A stretch of 16,651 bases of DNA from assembly GCA_041562555.1 (NCBI GenBank), contig JBFEXS010000043.1, forward strand, positions 1 to 16,651, written 5' to 3'. A program made the translations under genes and the position numbers. Of this stretch, positions 3,217 through 16,651 are shown in pieces. The notes below the pieces were generated by a model. The model was not told the DNA's origin. It was given only the letters and a program-made list of their open reading frames with translations, and ran no database searches. The stretch is from Sulfurimonadaceae bacterium. GTDB taxonomy: Bacteria > Campylobacterota > Campylobacteria > Campylobacterales > Sulfurimonadaceae. The stretch's first letter is position 1. Every line of letters begins with the position of its first letter.

Positions 3217-4482
3217 TTAAGACTTTTTCCTGTTAATGTGCAGGGCAATATTGGCGACCCGGACGCTTTGGTCATAGGGGATTGTCTCCAGATGCTTGGG
3301 ATCGAGACCATAGCGCGCCATTGCTCCCCTAAGCATCTCTAGTGCATGCCTATTAAAAGATTGTTCATCCAACAGGACAAATCCATGCTCATCGTTGTTT
3401 TTTGAGAGAAGTTTCAAAACATATTCTAGTACATGATCGAAGGTGATCTTTGAAAGAAGTCGTGTTGTTGTCTCATCATCAAAGAGCATCAGCATAAGCA
3501 ATAGTGTGTAGGGTGATGTGTCCTTTACCGTTTTCTGTAAGGGTGTAAGCGGATAGAGCGTGAGCATACGATGGATATTTATCCCCTTGTTCTCTGTCTC
3601 CAGCATCTCTTTGTGTTGTGTTGCACCCATAAGCCTTTGAATGATAGAACCGTCGATGAATAGCTCGATATTGGCGCCATGCGATATGATCTCCTTGCCA
3701 TCTTTAAAACGGTAGTCCTCATCACACATAAGTGAAAACCTGATCTTAATGTGATGGTTTTCAGGCTGAAGTTTCAAATACTCTTTTGCCTGTAAAAGTG
3801 ATATTGGATACGGAGTATTGGGCAAGATATCATCAAAAGCGAGTGAGACCATCTGAAGTATGGTCGCGTAGTAAGGTGTCAGCATGGCATTGTCCAAGAA
3901 GGTAGCGGGTGTATCGGGATAATCAAAACCTGGAATCGTACCTTTTCTTTCAAGGGTACCTTCAAAAAAAGGTGCTTTGATACCGGCAAGTTTTCTTATC
4001 ATGGTCAGTCGAAGCGGGGAGGGTGTCGACAGGAGTACGACCCCGTTATGCGGAGCAAGTTGTGATGCACACTGATAGGAGTGGAAGGAATCATCCATAT
4101 CGTTCATCTTAAGCGCTGTAATGTCAAGAAGCGTGGAGTGTGCAGACAGACCTGTAAACTGTGTGAACTCAAAAGCAAGGGCTTCACTGAGTCTCATTAC
4201 ATGTATACTCAGAACTTCCAGTAAATCATCGGTCAAAACCTTGAGTTTCGGGTCTTCCATCGTGACGATAAAATCATTATTATTAAATCGTACGGTTTCA
4301 CTGTATGCCTCACCACCTTGTACGGCAGAGATATGACTGGCATAATCGGACACTCTGTTTTTGGATTGCATAGGCTTAATATCTTCAGGTTTATAGTCTT
4401 GTGTACTTTTGTTTATGGAAGATAGCATATCATATTGCAGTGAGAAATGATAGTAGTAAGATGTAGATTGAAAGGGTTTCAT
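3217..4482 (-). CDS. Hypothetical protein, possible distant FliM (CheC-fold) plus FliG-middle-like segments; real start may be ATG 4371
   Basis: Long ORF. An extended -10-like TGATATGCT (4424-4432) lies inside the first 37 codons, suggesting start at MQSK (4371). Similarity to FliM/FliG is by eye only. Confidence 0.55.
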   Translation of the reverse strand: MKPFQSTSYYYHFSLQYDMLSSINKSTQDYKPEDIKPMQSKNRVSDYASHISAVQGGEAYSETVRFNNNDFIVTMEDPKLKVLTDDLLEVLSIHVMRLSEALAFEFTQFTGLSAHSTLLDITALKMNDMDDSFHSYQCASQLAPHNGVVLLSTPSPLRLTMIRKLAGIKAPFFEGTLERKGTIPGFDYPDTPATFLDNAMLTPYYATILQMVSLAFDDILPNTPYPISLLQAKEYLKLQPENHHIKIRFSLMCDEDYRFKDGKEIISHGANIELFIDGSIIQRLMGATQHKEMLETENKGINIHRMLTLYPLTPLQKTVKDTSPYTLLLMLMLFDDETTTRLLSKITFDHVLEYVLKLLSKNNDEHGFVLLDEQSFNRHALEMLRGAMARYGLDPKHLETIPYDQSVRVANIALHINRKKS

Positions 4483-5040
4483 GGTTGGATCATATGATTG
4501 AATGTATGCAAACTCTTTTGCTTCAATCTTGTCAAAAGCTCTGAACAGCTGTATCTAGGTCGACATTTTGATAGGGGCTTTTATCACGTCTCTACTAAAA
4601 CGATTAGATTCCAGTTAGTGATAAAGTCAAGGTTTTTAACGTAACAATTCTTTAATAGCAGACGTGTTGGGATTAGGAAAAGTTATTGATCTAAGGCTTA
4701 AGTATGTTGAAATTTTCAGGTTTTTCAGATGTATAGAAAATTCATGAAGGAAATCGTTCCACGACCTTTTCAGTTACCAAAGATGTTCAAAGTGTATCAT
4801 CAAGTACCTCGATTAAGAAAATCCGACTGCAGATGATATTGTTCATTATCAGTATGAATACGAATTTTTAAAAGATATTGATGATACCTGTTTTAGAATC
4901 ATCCTGCCTAAATCGATACACAATCAAGTGTAATATGAGAAGAGTGTCCAATATCCATAACAGGAGTGTTATACGTAAGTAAAGAGTACAGTGTGTACAG
5001 AGCTGCGCATCGGTACAGGCTGTGTTAAGTTTGTTTGTTA

Positions 5041-5745
5041 TTACTGTTTTTCAAATGAAAATCGGTTTCTGAACTCTTTGGCACCGTCTTTGCTTGATTC
5101 TACTTCATCTGAAATACCTTCAAACATAAACCGCAATTTACTTTGTTCTATGGTCTCCATCTCTTTTATCTTATCAATATTGACGAGGTATGAACGGTGT
5201 ACCCGTATGAAATTATAATTTCGCAGCTTTTCTTCAAGGGCGGAAATCTTTTGGGCATAGTAGGAGAAGCCTTTGAGCGTCCGCAGGATAACCTCGGATA
5301 AGTCGGCCTTGACATAAAAAATCTCCTGGGGTTTAAGCAGATAATAGTTATCCCCGTTCTTGCTCAGGATGCGGAGTTCCTCGTCTTGAGTGTTTGGAGT
5401 CTTAATACGTTCAATACTCTGTTTGAGTTGATCAATGCTGAAGGGTTTGACGAGATAAGCGATAGCACCTATATCGAAGGCTTCCAGGGCATGCTCGCTG
5501 TAGGCCGTTTGAAAGACAATTGCCATATCTTCTTGGTGGTAGCGCAATTCATAGGCCAGCTCAAGGCCACTGGTTTGAGGCATATTGATATCCAAGAATG
5601 CGAGATCAAAGCTCTTTTCCTGAATTATTTCAAGTGCCTCTTGTGCACAGCTTGCCTCAACAACCTGGGTGTATCCAAGTGTGTTAAGCATCCGTTTTAA
5701 TCGGGCAAGCCCGAGTTCTTCGTCATCAACGATCAGTATGTTCAT
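5041..5745 (-). CDS. LytTR-family DNA-binding response regulator (AlgR/YpdB-like)
   Basis: REC motifs IVDDE, FLDINMP, FQTAY, YLVKPF; LytTR motif FIRVHRSYLVN. Confidence 0.95.
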   Translation of the reverse strand: MNILIVDDEELGLARLKRMLNTLGYTQVVEASCAQEALEIIQEKSFDLAFLDINMPQTSGLELAYELRYHQEDMAIVFQTAYSEHALEAFDIGAIAYLVKPFSIDQLKQSIERIKTPNTQDEELRILSKNGDNYYLLKPQEIFYVKADLSEVILRTLKGFSYYAQKISALEEKLRNYNFIRVHRSYLVNIDKIKEMETIEQSKLRFMFEGISDEVESSKDGAKEFRNRFSFEKQ

Positions 5746-6736
5746 GGGTGTTTCCTAAGTGAATGTAAAATTGCGGGTGGCTTGTCTCTTTTATCTCTAG
5801 AGAACCTGAAGATAACAGTGCAAGCCGCTGATTGAGATTATTCAGACCTACACCAAAGTCACTGCTCGTCATCGCAGCCCCATTGTTTTTAACCGAAACG
5901 ATCTTGGCCCGGGGCAAAAAGTCTATTGTAATGAGAAGCTCGTTCTGATGGTTTGTATATCCATGCTTGATGGCATTTTCTGCTAGAAGCTGAATCGAAA
6001 ACTTTGGAACCTTCCAGTTTGGGATATTGTCGGCTATCTCTAATCTGATCCTATCAGAAAAACGGATATTCTCTAATTCGATGTAGTCACTGACATTGCG
6101 CAGTTCATCTTTGAGGGGGACAAGCGCTTCTTCTTTCATGGTATTGCGTAAAAATGCAGAGACTTTCAATACGGCTTCTTCGGCCTTTCCTTGGTCATGA
6201 TGGATCAGTTCGGCGATAGAGTTGAGGGCATTGAACAAAAAATGGGGATTGAGTTGTGTCTCAAGGGAACGCAAACGGCTTTGGAGATAATGCTGATCGA
6301 TGACTTCCTTTTCATTACGCATACGTACAAACCGATACAGCAGCGCCCCGACCACATAGGTTAATATCCCGATCGCAATTGAAATCTGAAGGGTGTGGGT
6401 ATGAAACATCGCAATTAACTCGATCTTGAGTGCCTGCGCAGTGTAGGTACTTAAAAGCGTGCCTAAAAACCCGGAGAGAAATGAAAACAGTATGGCAATG
6501 GGGAGCCAATAGACTTTTTTTACACGGGGAAGAATACGCTGATTGATGAAAGTGATAAAGGTCAGGGAAAAAAGTGTAATTAAAAACCCCAGGAGTAGAC
6601 CGTACCAAAGTCCCTCTGTCCATGGTTTTTCCAAGAGGGCATATCCCAAAGAGGAAAGTAACATGCCCAATATTATACCGATCAGCAGGATATAGAGCCA
6701 GTCTTTTGCTTTGATACGCAGTTCGATATCATACAT
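5726..6736 (-). CDS. LytS/YehU-family membrane sensor histidine kinase
   Basis: Several N-terminal TM helices; H-box LETQLNPHFLFNALNSI; N-box QLLAENAIKHG; G2 GVGLNNLNQRL; overlaps the RR start. Confidence 0.95.
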   Translation of the reverse strand: MYDIELRIKAKDWLYILLIGIILGMLLSSLGYALLEKPWTEGLWYGLLLGFLITLFSLTFITFINQRILPRVKKVYWLPIAILFSFLSGFLGTLLSTYTAQALKIELIAMFHTHTLQISIAIGILTYVVGALLYRFVRMRNEKEVIDQHYLQSRLRSLETQLNPHFLFNALNSIAELIHHDQGKAEEAVLKVSAFLRNTMKEEALVPLKDELRNVSDYIELENIRFSDRIRLEIADNIPNWKVPKFSIQLLAENAIKHGYTNHQNELLITIDFLPRAKIVSVKNNGAAMTSSDFGVGLNNLNQRLALLSSGSLEIKETSHPQFYIHLGNTHEHTDR

Positions 6737-8150
6737 CCAGAAGCTTCCTTAGGTTGGCAACACCAAGCATGACCCCAGGCCATCCCTGTGCAGCATACAC
6801 ACTGTCACCAACATGATACAAACCGGTAATTGACGTGTCATTTCCGGGAAGTCTTGGTAGAAAGTTCTTCATAGTGATTGGATTACCTCCCAGTTGCGAG
6901 CGTTTGATGTAGCGTTTAAATGTCTTTGGTGTCGCAGAAAAACAGTGTACAACCTGATCCTCTTGTATGTCTAGTGTAACACAAATGAGTTTAGAAAGTT
7001 CCTGTTCGAGCTGCTTTTTTTGCTGCTTATAGGTTAGTGTATCATCCCAAAACCGACAGTCTGTATGAATAGATGCGGTGATACTGTAGTGACCTTTGGG
7101 CGATATGATATCGTCTTGTATATCCGAAAAGGATACAAAAAGCGCGTTTGAGAGGGTAAAGGGATGAGGCTGTTCCTGAATGATCTGATAATGGTGTGCA
7201 AAGGTCTGCTCACTTTTGATCGTCATATAGAGCATAAAAGAGCTTTGATGGTTTTGCAGATGTGTGTAGCGTTCATAGTACTGCTTTACCGGCTTGTCAT
7301 CAAAAAGTTCAGTGCTGTCATAGATAGTGGAATTGAGTATAAGACGTTTTGCTCTTACGTTTTCTTCGCGTGTATGGACAATAAAATGATCGTGTTTACG
7401 CTCTATTTTGGTGACCGTAGTGTTCAGACGAAGATCCTTTATATTAGCGGTCATAGCATCAAAGACAGCTCCTAGTCCTCCGATCGTATAATGGGTTTCA
7501 TTAAATGTGTACCCCAGGCTTAGTGCCGCAGTAAAAAAGTTGATTTTTTGTGACGGAGCCTGTGCGACAATGAGAATCTGCGATTCGATGAAACGTTCGT
7601 ATTCAGGTGTGATGGAGCCATAAAACCTGCGAATGAAGTCGTGTGCATTGGTACACAGGTATCTTTTGAACTTCCATAAAAGTGGAAGATAGCTTACAAG
7701 TGACAGTACTTTGGACAGCTGCGAACGGTTCTCATAATAATGTCCATGCATACGGTAAAAACGTTCGCCTATGGTATGTACCAGTGTCCAAAACTCCATA
7801 TGTCTCGGATGAGGATAATGTATGTTGAGCTCATATAAAAAGCGTTCAAGGTCTTTGTACCTTGGGACGATCTTGTCTTCTTGTATAACCACGATGGAAG
7901 GATCGGTCTGTATCAGTTTTGGGGTAAACCCAATAGCATCAAACATCTCCTTGACCACATGCCCTGACTGATAGCCTGCCAAGGTTGTAGCCCCGGTGTT
8001 GTAGTAATAGCCTTGATGAGAAAATGTTGAGCTGCAGCCGCCTAAATAGGGCTCCTTCTCAAATAAGACAACCTCATGTCCTTTTGCAGCAAGGTAAGCA
8101 GCGATGCTGGACCCTCCAATCCCGGAGCCTACAACAGCATAATCCTTCAT
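6729..8150 (-). CDS. FAD-dependent oxidoreductase, phytoene desaturase/CrtD-CrtH family
   Basis: VVGSGIGG dinucleotide-binding motif, EKEPYLGGCSSTF...GAT, ATPKTFKRY, C-terminal GLYHVGDSV..AQGWPGV. Confidence 0.85.
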   Translation of the reverse strand: MKDYAVVGSGIGGSSIAAYLAAKGHEVVLFEKEPYLGGCSSTFSHQGYYYNTGATTLAGYQSGHVVKEMFDAIGFTPKLIQTDPSIVVIQEDKIVPRYKDLERFLYELNIHYPHPRHMEFWTLVHTIGERFYRMHGHYYENRSQLSKVLSLVSYLPLLWKFKRYLCTNAHDFIRRFYGSITPEYERFIESQILIVAQAPSQKINFFTAALSLGYTFNETHYTIGGLGAVFDAMTANIKDLRLNTTVTKIERKHDHFIVHTREENVRAKRLILNSTIYDSTELFDDKPVKQYYERYTHLQNHQSSFMLYMTIKSEQTFAHHYQIIQEQPHPFTLSNALFVSFSDIQDDIISPKGHYSITASIHTDCRFWDDTLTYKQQKKQLEQELSKLICVTLDIQEDQVVHCFSATPKTFKRYIKRSQLGGNPITMKNFLPRLPGNDTSITGLYHVGDSVYAAQGWPGVMLGVANLRKLLDV

Positions 8151-9082
8151 TGCTTCATCCCTTCATAGAGTGAAGAAATGCACTTGACAAAAGCGGGATG
8201 ATCATTGGGTGCTTTGGCCACTTTATAGGTATCAAACCCAAGCTGCATAGCAAGCTCTTTATACTCAATATCCAATTCAAATTCTGTCTCGGAGTTATCC
8301 ATCGTGAAGGAAAGAGGATAGATAATGACCTTTTTCTTTTTCAGGCTTGCCAATTTGTCTTCCAGGTAAGGACGGATCCATTCCAAGGGTCCTACTCTGG
8401 ATTGATAGGCCAGGTGGGTCTTATGAAAATAAATACCTGCAGTTACAAGTGCTTTTCTGGCATAGAAAAGGTTGTACTTTATATGACGTTGATAACTGTC
8501 TCCCTTATCAATGAGACGTTGGGTCAGACCATGGGCAGAGAACACAAGCTCATATTCGCCGGGGTCCTCATCTAAAAGCTGTTCCTTGATCCGTTCAACG
8601 ATGGCCTGAATGTAATCAGGATGCTTGTAGTAATGTTCCAGTGTCTTTACGTCAGCAGTGATATTGTGCTGTTTGATACCTTGTTTGAGCTCTTCGAGAC
8701 TTGAGAGTGTTGTTGTTGATGAATAATGCGGATAAAGGGGAATAGCATAGATCTCATCTACGTGTTTTAGCTTCTCTAACACATCGTTAGCAAAAGGCGG
8801 GGTATAGCGCATCACCATATGTACCGTTGCGTCAACCTGTGACTCAAGGGCTTTGATAAACTGCTTGGTATAACCGATAATAGGCGATTTTCCACCGATA
8901 CGGGCATAGTTGTTCCTAGCCTCGTCTTTGCGCTTGAAAGTGATTAGTTTAGAGATGATGGTACGAATCGGTTGAGGGGCACCTATGATGTGTTTGTCAT
9001 TAAACATATTGCTCAGAAACACTTCGACTTCGTCTAGGTTCCTAGGTCCACCCATATTCATAAGCAAGATCGCACGTTTCAT
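8147..9082 (-). CDS. hemH: Ferrochelatase
   Basis: LLMNMGGP, FLSNMFND, Y..IGGKSP, MRYTPP, PLYPHYSSTT, FSAHGL, AYQSRVGPLEWIRP, DNSETEFELDIEY. Confidence 0.97.
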   Translation of the reverse strand: MKRAILLMNMGGPRNLDEVEVFLSNMFNDKHIIGAPQPIRTIISKLITFKRKDEARNNYARIGGKSPIIGYTKQFIKALESQVDATVHMVMRYTPPFANDVLEKLKHVDEIYAIPLYPHYSSTTTLSSLEELKQGIKQHNITADVKTLEHYYKHPDYIQAIVERIKEQLLDEDPGEYELVFSAHGLTQRLIDKGDSYQRHIKYNLFYARKALVTAGIYFHKTHLAYQSRVGPLEWIRPYLEDKLASLKKKKVIIYPLSFTMDNSETEFELDIEYKELAMQLGFDTYKVAKAPNDHPAFVKCISSLYEGMKQ

Positions 9083-9108
9083 ATCTACCTCCCTGTACTA
9101 TATCTATA

Positions 9109-9157
9109 ATGGTAATACAGGGATCATATCTTTGGTAGGTGAAAAATGTCGATTAAT
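9109..9157 (-). promoter_or_regulatory. Conserved motif copy 1 plus -10 (TACCAT) upstream of the hemH-desaturase-HK-RR operon
   Basis: + strand TTTGGTAG(9131-9138)-gtgaaaaa-TGTCGATTAAT(9147-9157); -10 at 9109-9114, 16 nt from the motif. Confidence 0.7.
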
Positions 9158-9163
9158 TGGCTT

Positions 9164-9982
9164 TTATCCCATAAGATCCTCTAAGGCTTTATCGATCCTT
9201 TCAAACTCAAAATGAAACCCTGCTTCTTGCAGCGCCTTGGGATAGACCTCTTTAGAATCGGTCAATACAGAAGCTGCCTCTGCATATATAAGCCGTAGAG
9301 CGAAGAGGGGAACCGGTAAAAGTGTCGGACGTTTCAGTGCCTTTCCCAGTGCTTTTGTAAAGGTTTTGTTTGTCACAGGATGAGGTGCCGTCGCATTATA
9401 GATACCTTTCAGGCGATTTTCGATGATAAAAGTGTAGATGTTTGCAAGGTCTTTGATGTGAATCCAGCTTGTCATCATCGAACCATCTCCTATTGTACCG
9501 CCTAGTCCCAATCTGAAAGGGAGAAGCATCTGTGCCAAAGCCCCACCGTTTTTCCCCAGGACAATCCCAAAGCGTAAGATGGCGGTTGGCTTGTTGCATT
9601 TCAGTGCTTCGCGTTCCCAGGCCATTGTCAGCGATCCTAAAAAATCATCGGCTGTTTGAGTGGATGATTCATCACAGGCAATGTTGTTTGGATAGATACC
9701 GATAGCCGAGGTTGAAATAAAATGTTGGACATCACTTTGGTCAATGGCTTGTACAAGTTTCTTTGTCGTTTCTATGCGACTGTTGATCAAGGTGTTTTTA
9801 TAGGTGTCGTTCCAACGTTTGATAATGGGGGCACCCGCAAGATTAATGACAATTTCGACATCTTTAAGCTTGTCCAGAAGTGCAGGTATATCGTCGTGTC
9901 GGTCAAGGATGACATGGTCTTGAAACCTTTGCTGTAACGCTGTTCCGACAAAACCATGTGCACCGGTAAAAGCTACTTTCAT
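9164..9982 (-). CDS. TIGR01777 (YfcH-like) NAD-dependent epimerase/oxidoreductase
   Basis: Start moved to ATG 9982 (AAAGGAGAG RBS); TGAHGFVG, VINLAGAPI, SRIETT, SAIGIY, WEREA, LRFGIVLG..GGAL, FRLGLGG.IGDG, SWIHIKD. Confidence 0.93.
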   Translation of the reverse strand: MKVAFTGAHGFVGTALQQRFQDHVILDRHDDIPALLDKLKDVEIVINLAGAPIIKRWNDTYKNTLINSRIETTKKLVQAIDQSDVQHFISTSAIGIYPNNIACDESSTQTADDFLGSLTMAWEREALKCNKPTAILRFGIVLGKNGGALAQMLLPFRLGLGGTIGDGSMMTSWIHIKDLANIYTFIIENRLKGIYNATAPHPVTNKTFTKALGKALKRPTLLPVPLFALRLIYAEAASVLTDSKEVYPKALQEAGFHFEFERIDKALEDLMG

Positions 9983-10028
9983 GAAGTCTCTCCTTTGAGT
10001 TGCAGGTGACATTTGTGAAATCGATGAC

Positions 10029-10059
10029 ATCTGTTTATTGTAACGTAATTTAAACAGAT
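10029..10059 (-). promoter_or_regulatory. Inverted repeat ATCTGTTTA-N13-TAAACAGAT overlapping a TACAAT -10 upstream of TIGR01777
   Basis: 9-bp perfect arms 10029-10037 and 10051-10059; minus-strand TACAAT at 10037-10042. Could instead be a terminator/stabilising hairpin after the 31-aa ORF. Confidence 0.45.
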
Positions 10060-10084
10060 CTCGAATCGTATACGTCTATGCTCT

Positions 10085-10180
10085 CTAGCCCTTGTCCCAC
10101 ACATACAAAAGCAGCAGCAGTGCCAGGCCAAAAGGCAGGACAAGCAGTTTCACCTGAAGTTCATCAATGAAACGGTTCAT
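10085..10180 (-). CDS. Unannotated 31-aa single-pass membrane peptide
   Basis: MNRFIDELQVKLLVLPFGLALLLLLYVWDKG*; strong RBS AGAAGGAGGGAG just upstream; preceded by conserved motif copy 2. Confidence 0.7.
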   Translation of the reverse strand: MNRFIDELQVKLLVLPFGLALLLLLYVWDKG

Positions 10181-10202
10181 ATCTCCCTCCTTCTATCTAT
10201 AT

Positions 10203-10251
10203 AGTCTATAGAAGATAGGAGCTTTTTGGTAGCGTATTTATGTCGATTGAT
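10203..10251 (-). promoter_or_regulatory. Conserved motif copy 2 plus -10 (TAGACT) upstream of the 31-aa peptide
   Basis: + strand TTTGGTAG(10225-10232)-cgtattta-TGTCGATTGAT(10241-10251); -10 at 10203-10208, 16 nt from the motif. Confidence 0.7.
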
Positions 10252-10262
10252 AGATATTTGAA

Positions 10263-10793
10263 TCAGTTGTTAGGACTTAGCTGCTTTTCAATGCGTATAG
10301 GCTCAGCTTTGAGTGTGTCATAATAACCTTTTCCCAGGAACAGGGTCGGTCTTATACGCTTTTGTTCCTTGTTCAAAATAAGGTTGACATCTACAATAAA
10401 AAGGTCATGGTCTCCGTAATTAAGTCTATCTGTGAGGGTACACTCATAAATAAGGTACGCCTCTTCAATAAGATCACTTTTTATGGTGAGGGCATTTTTC
10501 TTATGAAGCCCGCTTAGTTTGAATTTATCGGTATATTGGCCATGTACTTCACCGCATAACTGGTAGGCTTTGTGATAAGAGATATCCAAAAAGTTCAGGG
10601 CACACTCTTTATACTTATTCAGGAGTTCATGGGTATGGTTTTCGCTTCGCAGGGCAAATGCATATCGGAAAGGCTCTTTTGATATTGGCATGTGCCAAGC
10701 TAATGGCATGATATTGCTGCCACATGTCAGCAGGGCAGCAACACGGGGTTGAGGATGGGATTTTTCATTTAGGTTTGGTGTTGTGTTAAACAT
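10263..10793 (-). CDS. Flavin reductase-like (DIM6/NTAB) FMN-binding protein
   Basis: Start moved to ATG 10793 (GGAG RBS, overlaps SRPBCC stop); NIMPLAW, ECALNF, DKF..SGL, IYEC, GDHDLFI motifs. Confidence 0.88.
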   Translation of the reverse strand: MFNTTPNLNEKSHPQPRVAALLTCGSNIMPLAWHMPISKEPFRYAFALRSENHTHELLNKYKECALNFLDISYHKAYQLCGEVHGQYTDKFKLSGLHKKNALTIKSDLIEEAYLIYECTLTDRLNYGDHDLFIVDVNLILNKEQKRIRPTLFLGKGYYDTLKAEPIRIEKQLSPNN

Positions 10794-11253
10794 TTTGTTT
10801 CTCCAATATGGTTTTAGTATGCTGATGTCTGTAAGTGAACATCTTTCGCATCTCATGTTTTATAAAGGGTAGGACAAGATGACTGAATGGATACATGGGA
10901 AGAGAAAACTCCAGTTCATCACAGAGCAGGCTTGTCGTATCGTTCAGGGCTTCGAATCTGTGATAATGGATAAATGAGGCAAAGGGACTTTGCATGGCTT
11001 TATCACAGACAAGTTGATGAGGTGTGAGTTTTGCTATTTTCATTCTCCAAGGCTGTGAGAATTTAAAACGGGTGATATCAAGGCTTATCTCACTTCCTTC
11101 ATATAGAGGTGGTGTGAATGAAGTGATTTTGACCTTTAAGTATGGTGGGGTGATCTTAGGCAGATTGTTTGTATCTATATGGAAATCATAGAGTGATGCA
11201 GTATCACATTCAATCTGTGTGCAAAACTTCATGCGTATTGTTTTTTGAAACAT
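10786..11253 (-). CDS. SRPBCC/START-fold (polyketide cyclase-like) ligand-binding protein
   Basis: DFH....NLPKITPP, W...I, D.....PF..F.H.HRF, D.LEF.LP, MF.YRH motifs of the SRPBCC family often linked to TIGR01777. Confidence 0.88.
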   Translation of the reverse strand: MFQKTIRMKFCTQIECDTASLYDFHIDTNNLPKITPPYLKVKITSFTPPLYEGSEISLDITRFKFSQPWRMKIAKLTPHQLVCDKAMQSPFASFIHYHRFEALNDTTSLLCDELEFSLPMYPFSHLVLPFIKHEMRKMFTYRHQHTKTILEKQNV

Positions 11254-11763
11254 TTAATCTCCCTGAGGGGTCCAGATAAGGGGACCTGTCGCATATCCAA
11301 AAGCAGGGAGCTTTGTTAAAATGGTATCAAGTACCTCGTGGCTGAGTTTTGGGGTACGCGATAGGATCCATAAATATTCTCTACTAGGCTCACCGACAAC
11401 AGCATAGCTATAGTCTGTGTCAAGCATAAGAATCCAGTAGTCCCCATAAAACGGTCTGAAAAAACTGACCTTTAGTTTACTGTTGTCTTCATCAACCGGG
11501 TAGGCAACACCGATTGCTTCTGTGAGCGTGCCGTCTTCTTTCATACATCGGTTAAGTACTTTGATATCACCGTCTTCTTTCATGGAGTATGTGGCGGACA
11601 CATCGCGACAACCTTTTTCAAATACATGTTCATATCTGGCTATCTCATACCATGTGCCGAGATACTTTTGAAGCTCTACATTGTCGACGGTGTTGAGGTT
11701 AGGATAGGATTTGCTGCATCCTCCCGATAACAGTAATAATAAGATGAGTAACAAACGTAACAT
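11254..11763 (-). CDS. blc: Outer-membrane lipoprotein lipocalin (Blc family)
   Basis: Lipoprotein signal ending GGC; YLGTWYEIAR, SKLKVSFFRPFYGDYWI, YLWILSRTP. Confidence 0.93.
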   Translation of the reverse strand: MLRLLLILLLLLSGGCSKSYPNLNTVDNVELQKYLGTWYEIARYEHVFEKGCRDVSATYSMKEDGDIKVLNRCMKEDGTLTEAIGVAYPVDEDNSKLKVSFFRPFYGDYWILMLDTDYSYAVVGEPSREYLWILSRTPKLSHEVLDTILTKLPAFGYATGPLIWTPQGD

Positions 11764-11781
11764 TAATGATCCTTTTGGATT

Positions 11782-11830
11782 ATGATGACGTAATAGCCGA
11801 TTGTTTGGTAGGCTCTATTTGTCACTTCAT
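11782..11830 (-). promoter_or_regulatory. Conserved motif copy 3 upstream of blc-SRPBCC-flavin reductase
   Basis: + strand TTTGGTAG(11804-11811)-gctctatt-TGTCACTTCAT(11820-11830); weaker -10 CATCAT at 11782-11787, same 16-nt spacing. Confidence 0.65.
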
Positions 11831-11855
11831 TAAAAAACGTGTCGCAAATGGTAAT

Positions 11856-13802
11856 TTAGAGGTACTGTGCCAATACCTGTTTTAAAGCCTTACTTTCAAT
11901 GGGTTTGGAAAGGTGTGCATTCATTCCCATTTGCATGTACGATTCAATGTCTTCTTTCATCACATTCGCCGTTAAGGCAATGATAGGGATGCTGTTGTTG
12001 GGATACGAGGACTTTCGGATCAGTTGTGTTGCTTCAATGCCGTTTGTATGCGGCATGTTGATGTCCATCAGGATCAGGTCATAGTCGGGGAAGGTTTTAA
12101 AGGCATCGAATGCTTCCTGACCATTTTCTACAAGTGTATAGGTAAGGTTCAAGTCCTCAAGGAGAAGAGAGATAAGAAGTTGGTTGGTCTTGTTGTCTTC
12201 GGCGACAAGAACATGTCCGTGCAGTTCGATGATGGATTCATCCTCATTTTCCTTTTGTATGACACCTGCCTCCGGTGCATGTATTGAAAAAGAGAAGGTA
12301 CTGCCTTGTCCGAGAGCACTCTTCAGATGGATTTCTCCTCCCAAAAGTTCAATGAGTTTTTTGGATATGCTGAGTCCTAAGCCTGTCCCGCCATAGTTTC
12401 TTGTTGTAGATATCTCAGCCTGCTCAAAGGGATTGAAAATACGTTTCTGGGCTTCTTCCGATATGCCGATTCCCTGATCTTTTACAGCCATATGCAAGAG
12501 TTTACCCTGTCTATGCAGGCTAATGGATATTGTTGAATTTTCCGGAGAGAACTTGATGGCATTGGAGATAAGATTGGAGAGTATCTGTTTAAGACGTAAG
12601 GGATCAGTATGAACATAATCTGAAAGTCCATCGGGATAATCAAAGTGTAAGGCAATGTTCTTGGAATCTGTGATCGATGTGAAAAAGGTTATTAGTTGGT
12701 GAAGATGGAGCCTCAGGTCAAAATCGATAGACTCTGTTTTCATACTACCATCTTCGATTTTGCTAAGATCAAGAATGTCGTTGATCACTACAAGGAGAGA
12801 TTTTGAAGCGTTCTCGATTATATCGAGGTACTCTCTTTTTTTCTTATCTGTTTCACCTTTTTGTAAAAGTTCAATAAACCCCATGATGCCGTTTAGAGGT
12901 GTGCGTATCTCATGACTCATATTGGCCAAAAACAGACTTTTTGAACGATTGGCATTCTCAGCTCTTTCCTTCTCTTGTATGAGACTCTGTTCTATCAGTT
13001 TAAGCTCAGTGATGTCCTGTACCGTTCCCTGACTCAGTACGGCCTTTCCTGTTTCGGAATAGAGGGTTTCCCCCCGTTCGATGACATACTTGATACGTCC
13101 GTCTTTCATTAAAAGGCGGTGTTCAATATTATAGGCAGTCCTGTTCTCCAAAGAGGTGTTGAAAGCCGCATTCACCTTTTCAACATCGTCGGGGTGGATG
13201 CTGTTTAAAAATCCTTCGTAAGAGGGTTGAAAAGTATGTGGATCTATCTCAAAAATGGTATATATCTGATCCGACCATAGCAAGGTGTTGCTCCTAAGAT
13301 CAAGCGACCAGCTTCCGATATTGGCAATTCGTTGTGCTTCATTGAGTCTGTTTTTACTGGTACTTAAATCCTCTGCAATACGTTTGCTTTCGGAGATATC
13401 TTTTGCGACACCGATGTAACCGGTCACTTTGCCTGTATTGTCCTTAAGGGCCGTAACCGAAAGAAGTACAGGTATGTGTCTGCCGTTTTTTGCGACGTAT
13501 GTCCATTCGTGCTCATTGGGTAACCCCAAGTCTGTTTTGGCGACGAAGACTTTAAACCCTGGTTGGATCTCTTGAGCCAACTCATCTGAAAATTCTCGGG
13601 CTCTTTTTATGACTTCGGATTCGATATGAAAAACTGCAGGTGTCAATCGCTCGATCAACTCTTGTGCTGTGTAGCCCAATAGATTTTCGGCAGCTTTATT
13701 GAACTTTGTGATGACCCCTTCGGTGTTGGTGGCAATGAGAAGGTGATCGACATTGTCGAATATGGCATTGGTGAGTACTTCGGTGTTGGTTCCCATATAC
13801 AC
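11856..13802 (-). CDS. Cytoplasmic hybrid sensor histidine kinase (PAS-PAS-HisKA-HATPase-REC)
   Basis: PAS (FNKAAENLLGY, EWTYVAKNG), second PAS (IGSW..WSDQIY..IHPDD), FLANMSHEIRTPLNG, NLISNAIKF, YGGTGLGL, REC AEDN/ILMDINMP; no TM. Start may be ATG 13796. Confidence 0.95.
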   Translation of the reverse strand: MYMGTNTEVLTNAIFDNVDHLLIATNTEGVITKFNKAAENLLGYTAQELIERLTPAVFHIESEVIKRAREFSDELAQEIQPGFKVFVAKTDLGLPNEHEWTYVAKNGRHIPVLLSVTALKDNTGKVTGYIGVAKDISESKRIAEDLSTSKNRLNEAQRIANIGSWSLDLRSNTLLWSDQIYTIFEIDPHTFQPSYEGFLNSIHPDDVEKVNAAFNTSLENRTAYNIEHRLLMKDGRIKYVIERGETLYSETGKAVLSQGTVQDITELKLIEQSLIQEKERAENANRSKSLFLANMSHEIRTPLNGIMGFIELLQKGETDKKKREYLDIIENASKSLLVVINDILDLSKIEDGSMKTESIDFDLRLHLHQLITFFTSITDSKNIALHFDYPDGLSDYVHTDPLRLKQILSNLISNAIKFSPENSTISISLHRQGKLLHMAVKDQGIGISEEAQKRIFNPFEQAEISTTRNYGGTGLGLSISKKLIELLGGEIHLKSALGQGSTFSFSIHAPEAGVIQKENEDESIIELHGHVLVAEDNKTNQLLISLLLEDLNLTYTLVENGQEAFDAFKTFPDYDLILMDINMPHTNGIEATQLIRKSSYPNNSIPIIALTANVMKEDIESYMQMGMNAHLSKPIESKALKQVLAQYL

Positions 13803-13902
13803 AAACCTTTTTTGGCTCTTTCTGCATTAAGCTTACATGTAAACAACTTGTATATAACTAAAAACCAAATATTACAATTAATAATACCAAAGAGTGATGC
13901 AT

Positions 13903-14781
13903 CTAAAAGAGCCAGACAATTTTGGCATTCAGACCTATAGACGGCTCGATCGAATAGGATGAATGCTCTTTGCCAAGGGAATCGAAGATCGTAAAGTCAC
14001 GTCTAATACTGTAGAGTATATTGGCTTCGCATTTGAGATGCTGGTTGAACCTGTAGGTAGCGCCTATGTTGCCCATATAGTCTTTGGCCTCGATGAAACC
14101 GGAGTTTTCGATTGTACTCTCGTTACTGAGTTTAATAACGGATTGGGAATAGATGATACCAAGTTTAAAAAGTGTTGACTCATTGGCATGATAGGCAATA
14201 TAGGTTCGTGGAAACCCTAGAATAACTTGAAGTCCGTCATTTTGGCGTGCCCGATAACTATAGCTAATGACAGGCAAAGCAAGTGTGGATACCTTGTGAT
14301 AGTTAGCGAATGCACCCAGTTGGATAGTATGGTCATCATCGATTTTGTATGAAGCAAATGAAAACAGACCAGCCCCATAGGAATCTTTGGTGTTCTTCTC
14401 AAAGGCGGAACGTATCGAAGCAGATGTTAAAAGGAACCATTTCTTATTGATGAAAAAAGGCAGGTTGGCATTGAGCTTAAAGGCATGCATCTGTGTGATG
14501 GGGCTGCTTTGTTGATCTCCAAAGGGAAGAGCATGCAGATCATCCCATGAAAATGCCCAGTGTGTATAGCTTAGGCCGATTATCTCATTATTAACGCGTA
14601 AACGGTTTTTATGGACTTCGACACTTCCCTCACTCCCTTTGATGTCTGCATCTGCCAAATAGGAAGATTCAAACGTGACTTTTGGCTGAATGATCCTTTC
14701 AAGTAGACCCTTTTGAAGCTGTTCTTTGGACCAGGATGGCAAACAGAGTAGTGAGAGTAAAAGAACCGGTCTTAGCATCAT
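13903..14781 (-). CDS. Outer-membrane beta-barrel protein (DUF6268-like)
   Basis: Signal peptide, alternating amphipathic strands, LPVISYSY and LGFPRT motifs, C-terminal Phe (IVWLF); start overlaps the photolyase stop. Confidence 0.65.
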   Translation of the reverse strand: MMLRPVLLLSLLCLPSWSKEQLQKGLLERIIQPKVTFESSYLADADIKGSEGSVEVHKNRLRVNNEIIGLSYTHWAFSWDDLHALPFGDQQSSPITQMHAFKLNANLPFFINKKWFLLTSASIRSAFEKNTKDSYGAGLFSFASYKIDDDHTIQLGAFANYHKVSTLALPVISYSYRARQNDGLQVILGFPRTYIAYHANESTLFKLGIIYSQSVIKLSNESTIENSGFIEAKDYMGNIGATYRFNQHLKCEANILYSIRRDFTIFDSLGKEHSSYSIEPSIGLNAKIVWLF

Positions 14782-16133
14782 GACAAGGTCTCTTTGAAAT
14801 ATTGCAACGCCTTTTGTGAAGCTTCTTTATGACGGATAAGGGGCTGCGGATAATCGCTGAGGTGATAGCTAAACAGCTTCTGTTCATCATGTAAAAGCAT
14901 GGGGTCTATATCCCTTAGCGCCGGAATCCAATGTTTGATGTAACTTGCTTCTTTATCAAACTTCTTGGCTTGTAGGTAAGGGTTGAAAATACGAAAGTAG
15001 GGTTGAGGGTCGATACCTGTTCCTGCACTCCATTGCCAGGATAGCGTGTTTGAAGCGGTATCATAGTCGAGCAGGTGGCGCGCAAAGAACTTCTCACCCC
15101 ATTGCCAGGGGAGCATGAGGTCTTTTGTGAAAAATGATGCGCAGATCATACGGACCCTGTTGTGCATATATCCCGTTTTCACTAGCTGGTTGATACCGGC
15201 ATCAATGATCGGCACGCCCGTCTTCGCTGTGCAGAATGCATTGAAGGTACTCTCATTGGCTACGCCTTTAAAGCGATATTTGTAGTTCTCATGCTCGATA
15301 CGCGGAAAATGGTAGAGAAGATAAGCATAAAAATCCCGAAATACCAATTGTCTGAAAAACGGTTCGGTATCAATACCCGATTCTCTTTTCCGTGCCAAGA
15401 AACGCAATACCTCTCGGATTGAAATGGTGCCAAAACGCAGATGAACCCCCAGCCCAGAGGTTCCTTCAAGTATAGGGAACTCTCTGTTCTTTTGGTATTG
15501 AGAGAGATTCAAATGCTCAAGCAGTGTTTGTGGTTCCCCGATCTGGATATCAACGGATGTAAAGCCCAAAGAACCGAGGGCTATGGGAAAACTGTTTTCT
15601 TGGGTATCGTCTACCTTGAATATCCGGGTGTAGTCGGTATCAAAACGTGTCTGTTGTGCTGAAAGAGATGTTTTTAGGTGCTCTTTGCCAAAGAGTGATT
15701 TTGCTTTGTTGTAAAAGGGAGTAAACATGAGATATGGGGTGCGATCATTTTTCATGACTCCATCTGGTTCAAAAATATAGGTATCATGCATGTAATTGAA
15801 GGGAAGTATATGTGAGACCTCTCGGTCCCTTTGCCGTGCATAACTGTCATAGTCACCGCTGGCGGCAACTTCGTCAAAACCGAGTGTTGCCAGTTGTTTA
15901 AACACCTTGATCGGATCTGCCAGGTATAACTTTAGATCAAGCCCTTTTGACTGTAGAGCTTTTTTCAGTCGGATGACCTGTGCAAAGATGAAAGAGATCC
16001 GTCTGTCATCTGCATCTAGCTTTTGAAGGATATTCGTGTCGAAGATAAAGATAGGCAGCACCTCACCCTCAAGGGATAGTAGGGGATTGTCATCTGTGCG
16101 CAGATCACGTCTGAACCAAAGGATGCGCTTCAT
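14778..16133 (-). CDS. phrB: Deoxyribodipyrimidine (CPD) photolyase
   Basis: WFRRDLRTDDN, PY.MFTPF, TSGLGVHLRFGTISIR, TGVPIIDAG, GYMHNRVRM, DYD.ASN..SWQW, YFRIFNP..Q.KKFD; Asn opposite flavin N5 retained. Confidence 0.95.
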   Translation of the reverse strand: MKRILWFRRDLRTDDNPLLSLEGEVLPIFIFDTNILQKLDADDRRISFIFAQVIRLKKALQSKGLDLKLYLADPIKVFKQLATLGFDEVAASGDYDSYARQRDREVSHILPFNYMHDTYIFEPDGVMKNDRTPYLMFTPFYNKAKSLFGKEHLKTSLSAQQTRFDTDYTRIFKVDDTQENSFPIALGSLGFTSVDIQIGEPQTLLEHLNLSQYQKNREFPILEGTSGLGVHLRFGTISIREVLRFLARKRESGIDTEPFFRQLVFRDFYAYLLYHFPRIEHENYKYRFKGVANESTFNAFCTAKTGVPIIDAGINQLVKTGYMHNRVRMICASFFTKDLMLPWQWGEKFFARHLLDYDTASNTLSWQWSAGTGIDPQPYFRIFNPYLQAKKFDKEASYIKHWIPALRDIDPMLLHDEQKLFSYHLSDYPQPLIRHKEASQKALQYFKETLS

Positions 16134-16651
16134 TTCCCACTTCGGATATCTGAGCGTAAAGCCAGGTTTTTTGGATAAGGAGTCAAAAACTTTTGTCCAA
16201 GAATGTAGGAGGCATCATATTTATGTGCCAACATGGACAGCATGCTTAGCGGAGTGATAAGAGGGATGATCTTGTGTGCATAATCATGGATCTGTTCGTG
16301 TAAAGCACGCTTTTCTATATCTGACATCTCTTTTTTCATGAACCCCGCCATATGTTCAAGTACATTACGAGTTTTTTTAATACTGCTCTTATGGGCTATG
16401 GCGGTTTTAAATCCTTCTTCATAGGCATGGAAAAGCTCACTAAAGTTGTCCTTGTCATGACTTCCGACGAGATTGCCAAGCTGACGGTAACTGCGTTCAT
16501 CTTTTGATTGCAGCATGAATTTATATGATTGATGGAATTGCACAAGTTCTTTGATGGCGGGTTGTGACGCCTTGAATTGTTCAAAGTCCTCATAGGCAAA
16601 AAGCTGCATGATAAAGTTCTCGCGTAGCCAGGGATCGTTTAGTCGGCCTTC
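16130..16651 (-). CDS. ybgA: YbgA-family protein (DUF523/DUF1722), 5' end outside the window
   Basis: Frame stays open to the edge: EGRLNDPWLRENFIMQLFAY...; LVQFHQSYKFML, NVLEHMAGF.K, Q.FL.PYP..L.LR; ATGA overlap with phrB as in E. coli ybgA-phr. Confidence 0.92.
   Translation of the reverse strand, partial: EGRLNDPWLRENFIMQLFAYEDFEQFKASQPAIKELVQFHQSYKFMLQSKDERSYRQLGNLVGSHDKDNFSELFHAYEEGFKTAIAHKSSIKKTRNVLEHMAGFMKKEMSDIEKRALHEQIHDYAHKIIPLITPLSMLSMLAHKYDASYILGQKFLTPYPKNLALRSDIRSGK

Follow-up and report, generated by a model that had tools for sequence, protein, structure and literature searches.

A conserved LytS/LytTR module with a CrtI-family flavoprotein as a candidate photo-oxidative switch of Campylobacterales

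In the known bacterial responses to light and singlet oxygen, control lies with B12-MerR repressors, with LOV or BLUF partners, or with pairs of extracytoplasmic function (ECF) sigma and anti-sigma factors. Here we describe a photoprotection gene cluster on a 16,651-base contig (JBFEXS010000043.1; C43) of a Sulfurimonadaceae bacterium, known from a 2.10-Mb metagenome-assembled genome (MAG) of 137 contigs and 88.9% completeness (GenBank GCA_041562555.1; G000). The window, meaning the whole stretch of DNA that was analysed, is this entire contig; since the contig ends bound it, the rest of the assembly was searched in place of flanks. Within the cluster lie the genes for a CrtD-like flavoprotein, a LytS-family histidine kinase and a LytTR response regulator, referred to below as the triad. 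We propose, with a probability of roughly 0.6, that these three proteins form one conserved, self-regulated signalling module of Campylobacterales that acts as a photo-oxidative switch.

The sigmaE-ChrR system (ECF11) of Rhodobacter and Caulobacter counts phrB among its targets. Its core regulon includes furan-fatty-acid genes (PMC6852236). In the singlet-oxygen regulon of Rhodobacter, UfaD, UfaO and UfaM make furan fatty acids, and a lipid desaturase thereby provides a singlet-oxygen-reactive membrane lipid that is needed for ChrR signalling (PMC7380195, PMC6852236). The module proposed here resembles this system in several respects: an autoregulated switch, a partly shared target set with a UfaD-like amine oxidase, DUF1365 (UfaO), a CMAS-type methylase and SDR operons (PMC7380195, PMC6852236), and the coupling of signalling to a desaturase of phytoene-desaturase type. 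Unlike sigmaE-ChrR, the assembly yielded no ECF sigma factor and no zinc anti-sigma factor with a cupin domain, and the predicted site is of activator type, placed before a sigma-70-type -10 box rather than an alternative sigma promoter.

Another group comprises the CarH/LitR regulators (MerR-B12) and class II LitR with a short LOV protein, described from Pseudomonas, Thermus, Streptomyces and Myxococcus, whose light-induced genes overlap with those considered here. For example, the light-induced set of Pseudomonas LitR holds phrB, RudS, ufaM, an SDR gene, a FAD-dependent oxidoreductase and cryB (PMC9758184, PMC11417400). In contrast to these systems, searches gave neither a MerR-B12 protein in the assembly nor a LOV domain in the window, and while LitR is a light-released repressor, the site found here is of activator type and abuts the -35 position. 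A first-pass annotation of this DNA had taken photolyase, DUF1722, lipocalin, ferrochelatase and TIGR01777 together as the known light/singlet-oxygen module of Proteobacteria. This holds for phrB, RudS and the furan-fatty-acid genes, which stand in the regulons cited above; membership of ferrochelatase, lipocalin and TIGR01777 was not confirmed from PMC9758184, PMC11417400 and PMC6852236, and neither ferrochelatase nor lipocalin was found in PMC9758184 (0 occurrences).

The closest analogy for the roles proposed below for the CrtD-like enzyme and the kinase is the CarF-CarR-CarQ pathway of Myxococcus xanthus, in which a lipid desaturase (forming a plasmalogen from plasmanylethanolamine) lets a multi-pass membrane protein report singlet oxygen from photo-excited protoporphyrin IX (PMC9131029). 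The protein families are unrelated, CarF being a TMEM189-type desaturase and CarR an anti-sigma factor. How the signal gets from the membrane to ChrR or CarR is described as an open question (PMC6852236, PMC9131029).

The protein families of the present pair are those of the LytS/LytTR systems (LytSR, BtsSR/YehUT, YpdAB and AlgZ/FimS-AlgR), which likewise combine a PF06580 kinase with a membrane-embedded N terminus, a REC + LytTR regulator and overlapping genes. LytTR regulators bind direct repeats about 21 bp apart (PMC4847170), a spacing that recurs in the site predicted here from sequence. In contrast to these systems, the kinase has no reported 5TMR-LYT or GAF domain, an invariant and translationally coupled CrtI-family flavoprotein accompanies it, and the putative targets are photoprotection genes rather than pyruvate uptake, murein hydrolase control or alginate and pili. 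While the gene content is the known light/singlet-oxygen set, the wiring (LytS-family kinase, LytTR activator-type site, coupled CrtI-family enzyme and putative thiamine targets) differs from every described case. In agreement with the first-pass annotation, no described system of this type was found in a search of openly accessible literature.

The operon that carries the triad, together with the three operator copies of the window, is laid out as follows; scores in bits are from a position weight matrix (PWM).

11801-11831 (core 11805-11823), minus strand: operator copy before the lipocalin-SRPBCC-flavin reductase operon; exact pattern match, PWM 30.2 bits
10222-10252 (core 10226-10244), minus strand: operator copy before a small open reading frame (ORF) and TIGR01777; exact match, PWM 32.6 bits, the best of the genome
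9128-9158 (core 9132-9150), minus strand: operator copy before the hemH-CrtD-like-kinase-regulator operon; exact match, PWM 23.9 bits
8147-9082, minus strand: hemH ferrochelatase, second copy of the genome (TIGR00109, 261 bits, cut-off 125)
6729-8150, minus strand: CrtD/CrtI-fold FAD oxidoreductase (PF13450, E 4.3e-17; PF01593)
5726-6736, minus strand: LytS-family histidine kinase, 336 aa (PF06580, E 2.4e-24, residues 154-230)
5041-5745, minus strand: REC + LytTR response regulator (PF00072, E 4.3e-28; PF04397, E 1.8e-19)

The four genes of this operon are chained by overlaps of 4 nt (hemH/CrtD-like), 8 nt (CrtD-like/kinase) and 20 nt (kinase/regulator), as had been noticed at first pass. The kinase consists of a hydrophobic N-terminal region followed by a His_kinase core, in which H165, within an NPHF motif, is invariant among 21 orthologs. 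Its ATPase domain gives a weak match to PF02518 (E 0.0068, under cut-off), and residues E253, N254, K257, H258, G259, N284, G286 and G297 are invariant in the same 21 orthologs. In its 336 residues, Pfam (E up to 0.01) reported neither a 5TMR-LYT nor a GAF domain, and NCBIfam gave no matching model. The regulator scores far under the cut-offs of the named NCBIfam families (BtsR, 120.6 vs 246; LytR, 110.6 vs 375), and a protein atlas look-up for the kinase returned generic LytS-type clusters only, from Campylobacterota and Bacteroidota.

The arrangement of the triad is strongly conserved. A wide scan with the kinase gave 233 related loci, and the neighbourhood counts below rest on the best 80, all from Campylobacterales MAGs (Sulfurimonas, Sulfurovum and Sulfuricurvum). 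The CrtD-like gene immediately precedes the kinase in all evaluable loci except L089 and L092 (70 of 72), and the regulator immediately follows the kinase in all except L056 (74 of 75); the 8-nt overlap between CrtD-like gene and kinase recurs in most loci. The closest relatives of the window are Sulfurimonadaceae and Sulfurovum MAGs. Among 41 sampled relatives, ten hold a kinase ortholog, flanked by the CrtD-like gene and the regulator wherever context exists. The CrtD-like flavoprotein, as judged from this synteny, is the invariant third member of the kinase/regulator module. In an even sample of the phylum (401 genomes), the kinase was detected at E <=1e-60 in 30, distributed over coded families f10 (17/23), f1 (6/34), f20 (3/19), f6 (2/20) and f8 (1/2), and in none of the genomes of the two largest families of that sample (0/118 and 0/158). 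All 17 loci examined from four families contain the triad, once with the CrtD-like gene divergent behind phrB, and the triad family is also present in cultured Sulfurovum strains. One locus, L125 (G287:C23:36400-56399), has a split module, in which kinase-regulator-thiE-SRPBCC and phrB-CrtD-like occupy opposite strands and are read away from a common gap; here, one operator variant lies before phrB in the divergent gap and a second directly upstream of thiE. In another (L014, genome G013), pdxJ-pdxA follow the regulator.

Photoprotection genes accompany the triad well beyond the window. At least one core photoprotection gene is present in 65 of the 80 loci, and in 27 of the 29 loci of at least 18 kb. 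The most frequent is hemH, which immediately precedes the CrtD-like gene in 45/80 loci, followed by TIGR01777 (28/80), ybgA (21/80), phrB (20/80), lipocalin (19/80) and GPx (16/80), while UfaD-like, DUF1365, CMAS and DUF3833 genes occur in 9-11 loci each of the same 80. In Sulfuricurvum, ybgA-phrB directly follow the regulator; other loci carry the string lipocalin-UfaD-DUF1365-CMAS-DUF3833-GPx-(TIGR01777)-hemH-triad. In the four-family set of 17, 13 loci have phrB and/or ybgA no more than 10 kb from the triad and commonly in one gene string with it, as in ybgA-phrB-CrtD-like-kinase-regulator or phrB-CrtD-like-kinase-regulator-GPx-SRPBCC-hemH. Because the gene order varies between genera, with phrB and ybgA upstream in some and after the regulator in others, a functional linkage of these genes with the triad is suggested.

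A shared operator ties these genes together. It was found by aligning the gaps upstream of triad operons and was captured as GACA-N9-TAC-N-AA; in full it reads AYNAA-N2-GACAWA-N7-TACNAA, with three ACNAA-like repeats at offsets 0, 8 and 21, and its end is about 15-17 bases from a downstream TAnAAT-like -10 box, at the place expected for a -35 element. The window holds three exact copies only, all on the gene strand and in the promoter gaps before hemH, TIGR01777 (with its small ORF) and lipocalin. With one mismatch allowed there are 9 matches vs 4.3 expected, so only exact copies carry weight. A generic scan of positions 4400-16651 for sigma-70 promoters and terminators gave sites no more numerous than in shuffled sequences. 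Across 81 sequences (1.18 Mb), 86 exact copies were found, 70 of them in the 6.2% that is intergenic, and 69 of these 70 lie on the kinase strand. Positions outside the pattern are conserved as well: in 65 distinct sites, A stands at -4 and a pyrimidine at -6 in 65/65, A at -3 in 59/65 and A at -7 in 52/65. In a position-weight scan, 62 of 66 triad operons had an operator scoring at least 17 bits in front of them.

The operator also outlines a putative regulon. Across G000 as a whole, only four sites reach 23.9-32.6 bits, with 15.8 bits for the best of the rest; three are those of the window, and the fourth (C54:5120-5150, minus strand; locus L108) lies before thiD-thiE-THI5/NMT1, genes that stand behind the operator in several other genera too. 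In relatives it additionally precedes lipocalin-UfaD-DUF1365-CMAS-DUF3833-GPx, SDR-SnoaL-MFS, TIGR01777, GPx, ybgA-phrB, ABC1, flavin reductase and EAL operons, as well as genes for CbiX, SOUL heme-binding proteins and a BLUF protein. Among families further removed, GACA in the centre is variable, and the outer repeats 21 bp apart are kept before ybgA, phrB, hemH, lipocalin, EAL and thiamine genes. A stricter pattern gave 47 copies in the ten kinase-bearing genomes (vs 9 for its reversed control) and 62 in the 31 genomes without the kinase (vs 59). One of the latter, G010 (84% complete, kinase not found), has a 24.1-bit site before BLUF-TIGR01777-ybgA-phrB-PAS kinase, which fits the link between operator and kinase once incompleteness is allowed for.

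The LytTR regulator is the probable binder of this operator. Three observations from comparative genomics point to it: the operator precedes the regulator's own operon almost everywhere, as in autoregulated two-component systems; its build, with outer repeats 21 bp apart, fits the LytTR description, in which sites consist of two repeats of 9-11 nt, 11-13 nt apart (PMC4847170); and enrichment of the stricter pattern is limited to genomes with the kinase. Autoregulation of the triad operon from the operator before hemH is likewise implied, and we regard the regulon and its operator as well supported by these comparisons. The first-pass annotation had proposed the LytS/LytTR pair as the dedicated switch of the cluster and had asked for synteny in relatives; its interpretation is largely supported by the comparative genomics, since both triad synteny and a shared operator were found and neither of its computable refuting conditions (loss of synteny, or a classical regulator nearby) spoke against it, the second as far as the 88.9% complete assembly allows, with the amendments that the invariant partner of the pair appears to be the CrtD-like flavoprotein, not hemH, and that the cluster and genome hold further candidate sensors, namely a PAS hybrid kinase and a BLUF gene elsewhere.

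On this basis, the following mechanism can be proposed. A membrane-borne signal of photo-oxidative stress would lead the kinase to phosphorylate the regulator, which would then bind the ACNAA-type direct-repeat operator, with its outer copies 21 bp apart, at the -35 position. From there it would activate its own operon and a set of protective operons; activation rather than repression is inferred. In G000, the predicted targets are hemH-CrtD-like-kinase-regulator, the small ORF with TIGR01777, lipocalin-SRPBCC-flavin reductase and thiD-thiE-THI5, to which ybgA-phrB, furan-fatty-acid synthesis, GPx, ABC1, a BLUF protein and CbiX or SOUL proteins may be added in relatives. The kinase, without a reported soluble sensor domain, would read a molecule inside the membrane. 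By analogy with CarF/plasmalogen and UfaD/furan fatty acids, the flavoprotein may help to create or read the signal, possibly by desaturating a membrane lipid that reacts with singlet oxygen. The stimulus would be light or singlet oxygen, as the photolyase, the operator-linked BLUF genes and the homologues of the furan-fatty-acid genes (UfaD, UfaO and UfaM) place the gene set in a light context.

Several points weigh against this reading. The sampled genomes are kin, so that the counts overstate independence and are descriptive only, and the position weights were derived from pattern-anchored sites, which makes the fixed positions circular. Across the 41 relatives, eight genomes hold both kinase and phrB, two the kinase alone, five phrB alone and 26 neither. 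This co-distribution speaks for the module, while the five with phrB and no detected kinase, two of them less than 90% complete, count against it. Among genomes lacking the kinase, G012 (99% complete) carries ybgA-phrB-OMP-lipocalin-SRPBCC-DUF2867 (OMP, outer-membrane protein) with neither kinase nor operator, and the targets can therefore exist without the kinase switch. Conversely, the triad locus of G026 has no site of at least 13 bits, with 12 pattern matches genome-wide. In G000, the promoter of ybgA-phrB-OMP lies beyond the contig end, and the PAS kinase has no operator upstream; this kinase and the BLUF proteins are themselves alternative candidate sensors. GPx, hemH and the thiamine genes fit general oxidative or oxygen stress equally well. 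Lastly, the sequencing runs with this DNA are three DNA runs of one study, with no RNA run listed.

The nature of the CrtD-like flavoprotein bears directly on the signal. It combines an FAD-binding Rossmann start with a CrtI-type fold (structure model with a predicted local distance difference test score, pLDDT, of 90.4), and its best Foldseek matches in the PDB are 4rep (gamma-carotenoid desaturase, TM 0.79, E 3.9e-28) and 4dgk (CrtI). Its scores are far under the family cut-offs (TIGR02733, 176 vs 549.7 bits; TIGR02734, 76.7 vs 238.1). No phytoene/squalene synthase (PF00494) was found in the 88.9% complete assembly, which makes a carotenoid substrate unlikely. By analogy, it is proposed that the enzyme supplies or processes a membrane molecule that reacts with singlet oxygen. 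A complex prediction for the kinase and the CrtD-like protein (alignments of 21 rows each) scored 0.00 against a mark of 0.32, a result that counts neither for nor against binding.

Alternatively, the module could be a switch for porphyrin and heme homeostasis, with membrane-borne protoporphyrin or heme as the signal for the kinase and a tetrapyrrole as the substrate of the CrtD-like enzyme; the light genes would then be co-regulated only because free porphyrin is the photosensitiser. The frequent position of hemH directly upstream of the CrtD-like gene speaks for this. So does the extra copy of hemH: the other paralog of G000 (C1:54002-54940) is 48% identical to that of the cluster, and with a second ferrochelatase on C1 the cluster copy is probably an inducible paralog. 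In L056, where hemH is missing, a small CbiX-type chelatase gene (L056:8168-8578) takes its position just before the CrtD-like gene. Divergent operators precede SOUL heme-binding genes in L023 and L024, and the CrtD-like enzyme belongs to the same superfamily as the protoporphyrinogen oxidase HemY. A CbiX gene also ends the operator-controlled lipocalin-UfaD-DUF1365-CMAS-DUF3833 operon of another locus (L033:5389-5766), where hemH is present too. Against the porphyrin switch, the best fold matches of the enzyme are carotenoid desaturases, and the triad also occurs without nearby hemH, beside phrB or furan-fatty-acid genes. In addition, HemJ is present in the genome, and the match to the protoporphyrinogen oxidase model covers only the FAD-binding start (residues 1-96); on these two points the CrtD-like enzyme was also rejected as the housekeeping protoporphyrinogen oxidase. 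We consider such a switch unlikely, and it overlaps with the photo-oxidative module more than it excludes it.

The search for other sensors leads to the next alternative. As first noted from the sequence, the window contains no gene for MerR-B12, ChrR, an ECF sigma factor, LOV or BLUF (Pfam/NCBIfam; LOV by its cysteine motif). The same is true of classical regulators in the assembly as far as it is complete, the flanks beyond the contig being unreadable. B12-binding domains occur there only in frames of 504 and 1144 aa, and the two MerR proteins (125 aa beside a DnaJ-like gene and 218 aa beside RNase Y) both lack a B12 domain. The two sigma70_r2 matches are of RpoD and FliA type, leaving no ECF sigma factor. 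ChrR was not found either: Cupin_7 appears only in two frames of about 150-160 aa away from sigma genes, of which the one scoring in Pfam has cupin-type domains only, while no called ORF scored at the other site.

Two further candidates remain as light sensors. One is the PAS-PAS hybrid kinase of the cluster, for which a LOV reading of the first PAS domain was rejected as the LOV cysteine motif is missing, and next to which no Hpt domain or partner regulator is visible in the window. The other is the short BLUF protein, encoded in 7 of 41 relatives, all of the window's genus, and often beside phrB. In G000, the BLUF gene (C17:25646-25921, minus strand; L113:5494-6231) lies beside ribA (GTP cyclohydrolase II) and hemB with no operator copy nearby; its 245-aa frame from a GTG start is probably over-extended.

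One of these could be the true photoreceptor, with the LytS/LytTR pair as its target or amplifier. This would agree with the BLUF genes beside phrB in G007, G010 and G015, the BLUF gene on C17 in G000, a 75%-identical ortholog of the PAS kinase after phrB in G010 (L111:2195-4135) and another PAS kinase divergent from ybgA-phrB in G014. Nevertheless, BLUF is confined to one genus and was not found in the triad-bearing genomes of other families (G013, G026, G031, G033 and G038), and the linked BLUF genes sit behind the operator and look like targets: in G010 a BLUF gene comes first behind it, and in L072 one closes an operator-controlled operon. Likewise, the PAS kinase is absent from the equivalent place, between OMP-like gene and lipocalin, in L021 and G012, and no operator-independent regulator was found beside the clusters. 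Both genes therefore look like lineage-specific additions, and a dedicated photoreceptor upstream of the pair seems improbable to us, although within the window's genus they may yet be the primary photoreceptors.

Least probable is that the regulon answers general oxidative or oxygen stress in microaerophilic sulfur oxidisers, with photolyase and RudS as passengers, although oxidative stress commonly involves such functions as GPx, flavin reductase, thiamine synthesis, hemH and ABC1 kinases, and the Caulobacter ChrR system also answers organic hydroperoxides (PMC6852236). Against it, photolyase works in light only, a light context is likewise that of RudS, BLUF and a photolyase-related DPRP gene, and phrB and/or ybgA stay within 10 kb of the triad in most loci of the four families.

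The remaining genes of the cluster are co-oriented with the triad operon, as first reported: the minus strand carries every gene from 16651 down to 5041 (ORF calls and Pfam/NCBIfam matches). Four of the genes (the PAS-PAS hybrid kinase, the OMP-like gene, the flavin reductase and the 31-codon ORF) were absent from the first-pass annotation.

16130-16651, minus strand: ybgA (RudS-type), DUF1722 part only (PF08349, E 1.9e-33); N-terminal part and promoter lie past the contig end
14778-16133, minus strand: phrB, class I cyclobutane pyrimidine dimer photolyase (PF03441, E 6.8e-69; PF00875, E 6.6e-25; TIGR03556 and NF007955 under cut-offs)
13903-14781, minus strand: OMP-like protein of 292 aa with signal peptide and a weak likeness to outer-membrane beta-barrels; its start overlaps the phrB stop
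11856-13802, minus strand: PAS-PAS hybrid histidine kinase (PAS-PAS-HisKA-HATPase-REC, by Pfam/NCBIfam domains)
11254-11763, minus strand: lipocalin Blc (PF08212, E 1.9e-48)
10786-11253, minus strand: SRPBCC-like protein (weak match to PF03364, E 2.2e-4, under cut-off; recurs in 13/80 loci)
10263-10856, minus strand: flavin reductase-like protein (PF01613, E 3.6e-22)
10085-10180, minus strand: 31-codon ORF for a hydrophobic membrane peptide, with a Shine-Dalgarno-like sequence, between operator and TIGR01777
9164-10030, minus strand: TIGR01777 (YfcH-type) epimerase-fold oxidoreductase (TIGR01777, 267.9 bits, cut-off 207.35)

Full-length relatives of the truncated ybgA, for example in L018, combine a 2-thiouracil desulfurase domain with DUF1722. 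The OMP-like gene also directly follows phrB in G012. Short hydrophobic ORFs comparable in place to the 31-codon ORF seem to lie between the operator and hemH or the CrtD-like gene in the Sulfuricurvum loci L072, L082 and L085-L088. Beyond the regulator, 558 bases of the window (4483-5040) contain neither an ORF of at least 60 aa nor an operator copy and separate it from a gene for a 421-aa protein of unassigned function. The left end of the contig holds a fragment resembling VirD4/coupling proteins and two ORFs that are 27-28% identical and on opposite strands (3-470 and 743-1360, plus; 1453-2004, minus), and the cluster may border a mobile element.

In a wider perspective, the module suggests how Campylobacterales, in which no ECF sigma factor was found here, may control photolyase, RudS, furan fatty acids and an extra ferrochelatase, with thiamine synthesis as an unexpected member of a photo-oxidative regulon. 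The operator offers a means of predicting regulon members in MAGs, and the cultured Sulfurovum carriers make experiments feasible. A two-component system whose operator and kinase are defined, and which has a single enzyme as partner, could make the question of the lipid signal directly testable. It is conceivable, if on balance doubtful, that the module represents a third independent lipid-chemistry route to sense singlet oxygen or light, in which a CrtI-family flavoprotein makes (or photochemically becomes) a sentinel molecule, a minimal LytS-type kinase reads it and a LytTR activator responds, and with it the first LytS/LytTR system responsive to light or photo-oxidation. If true, a lipid-sentinel system would sit in chemolithoautotrophic Campylobacterales, and its regulon would include the resynthesis of thiamine.

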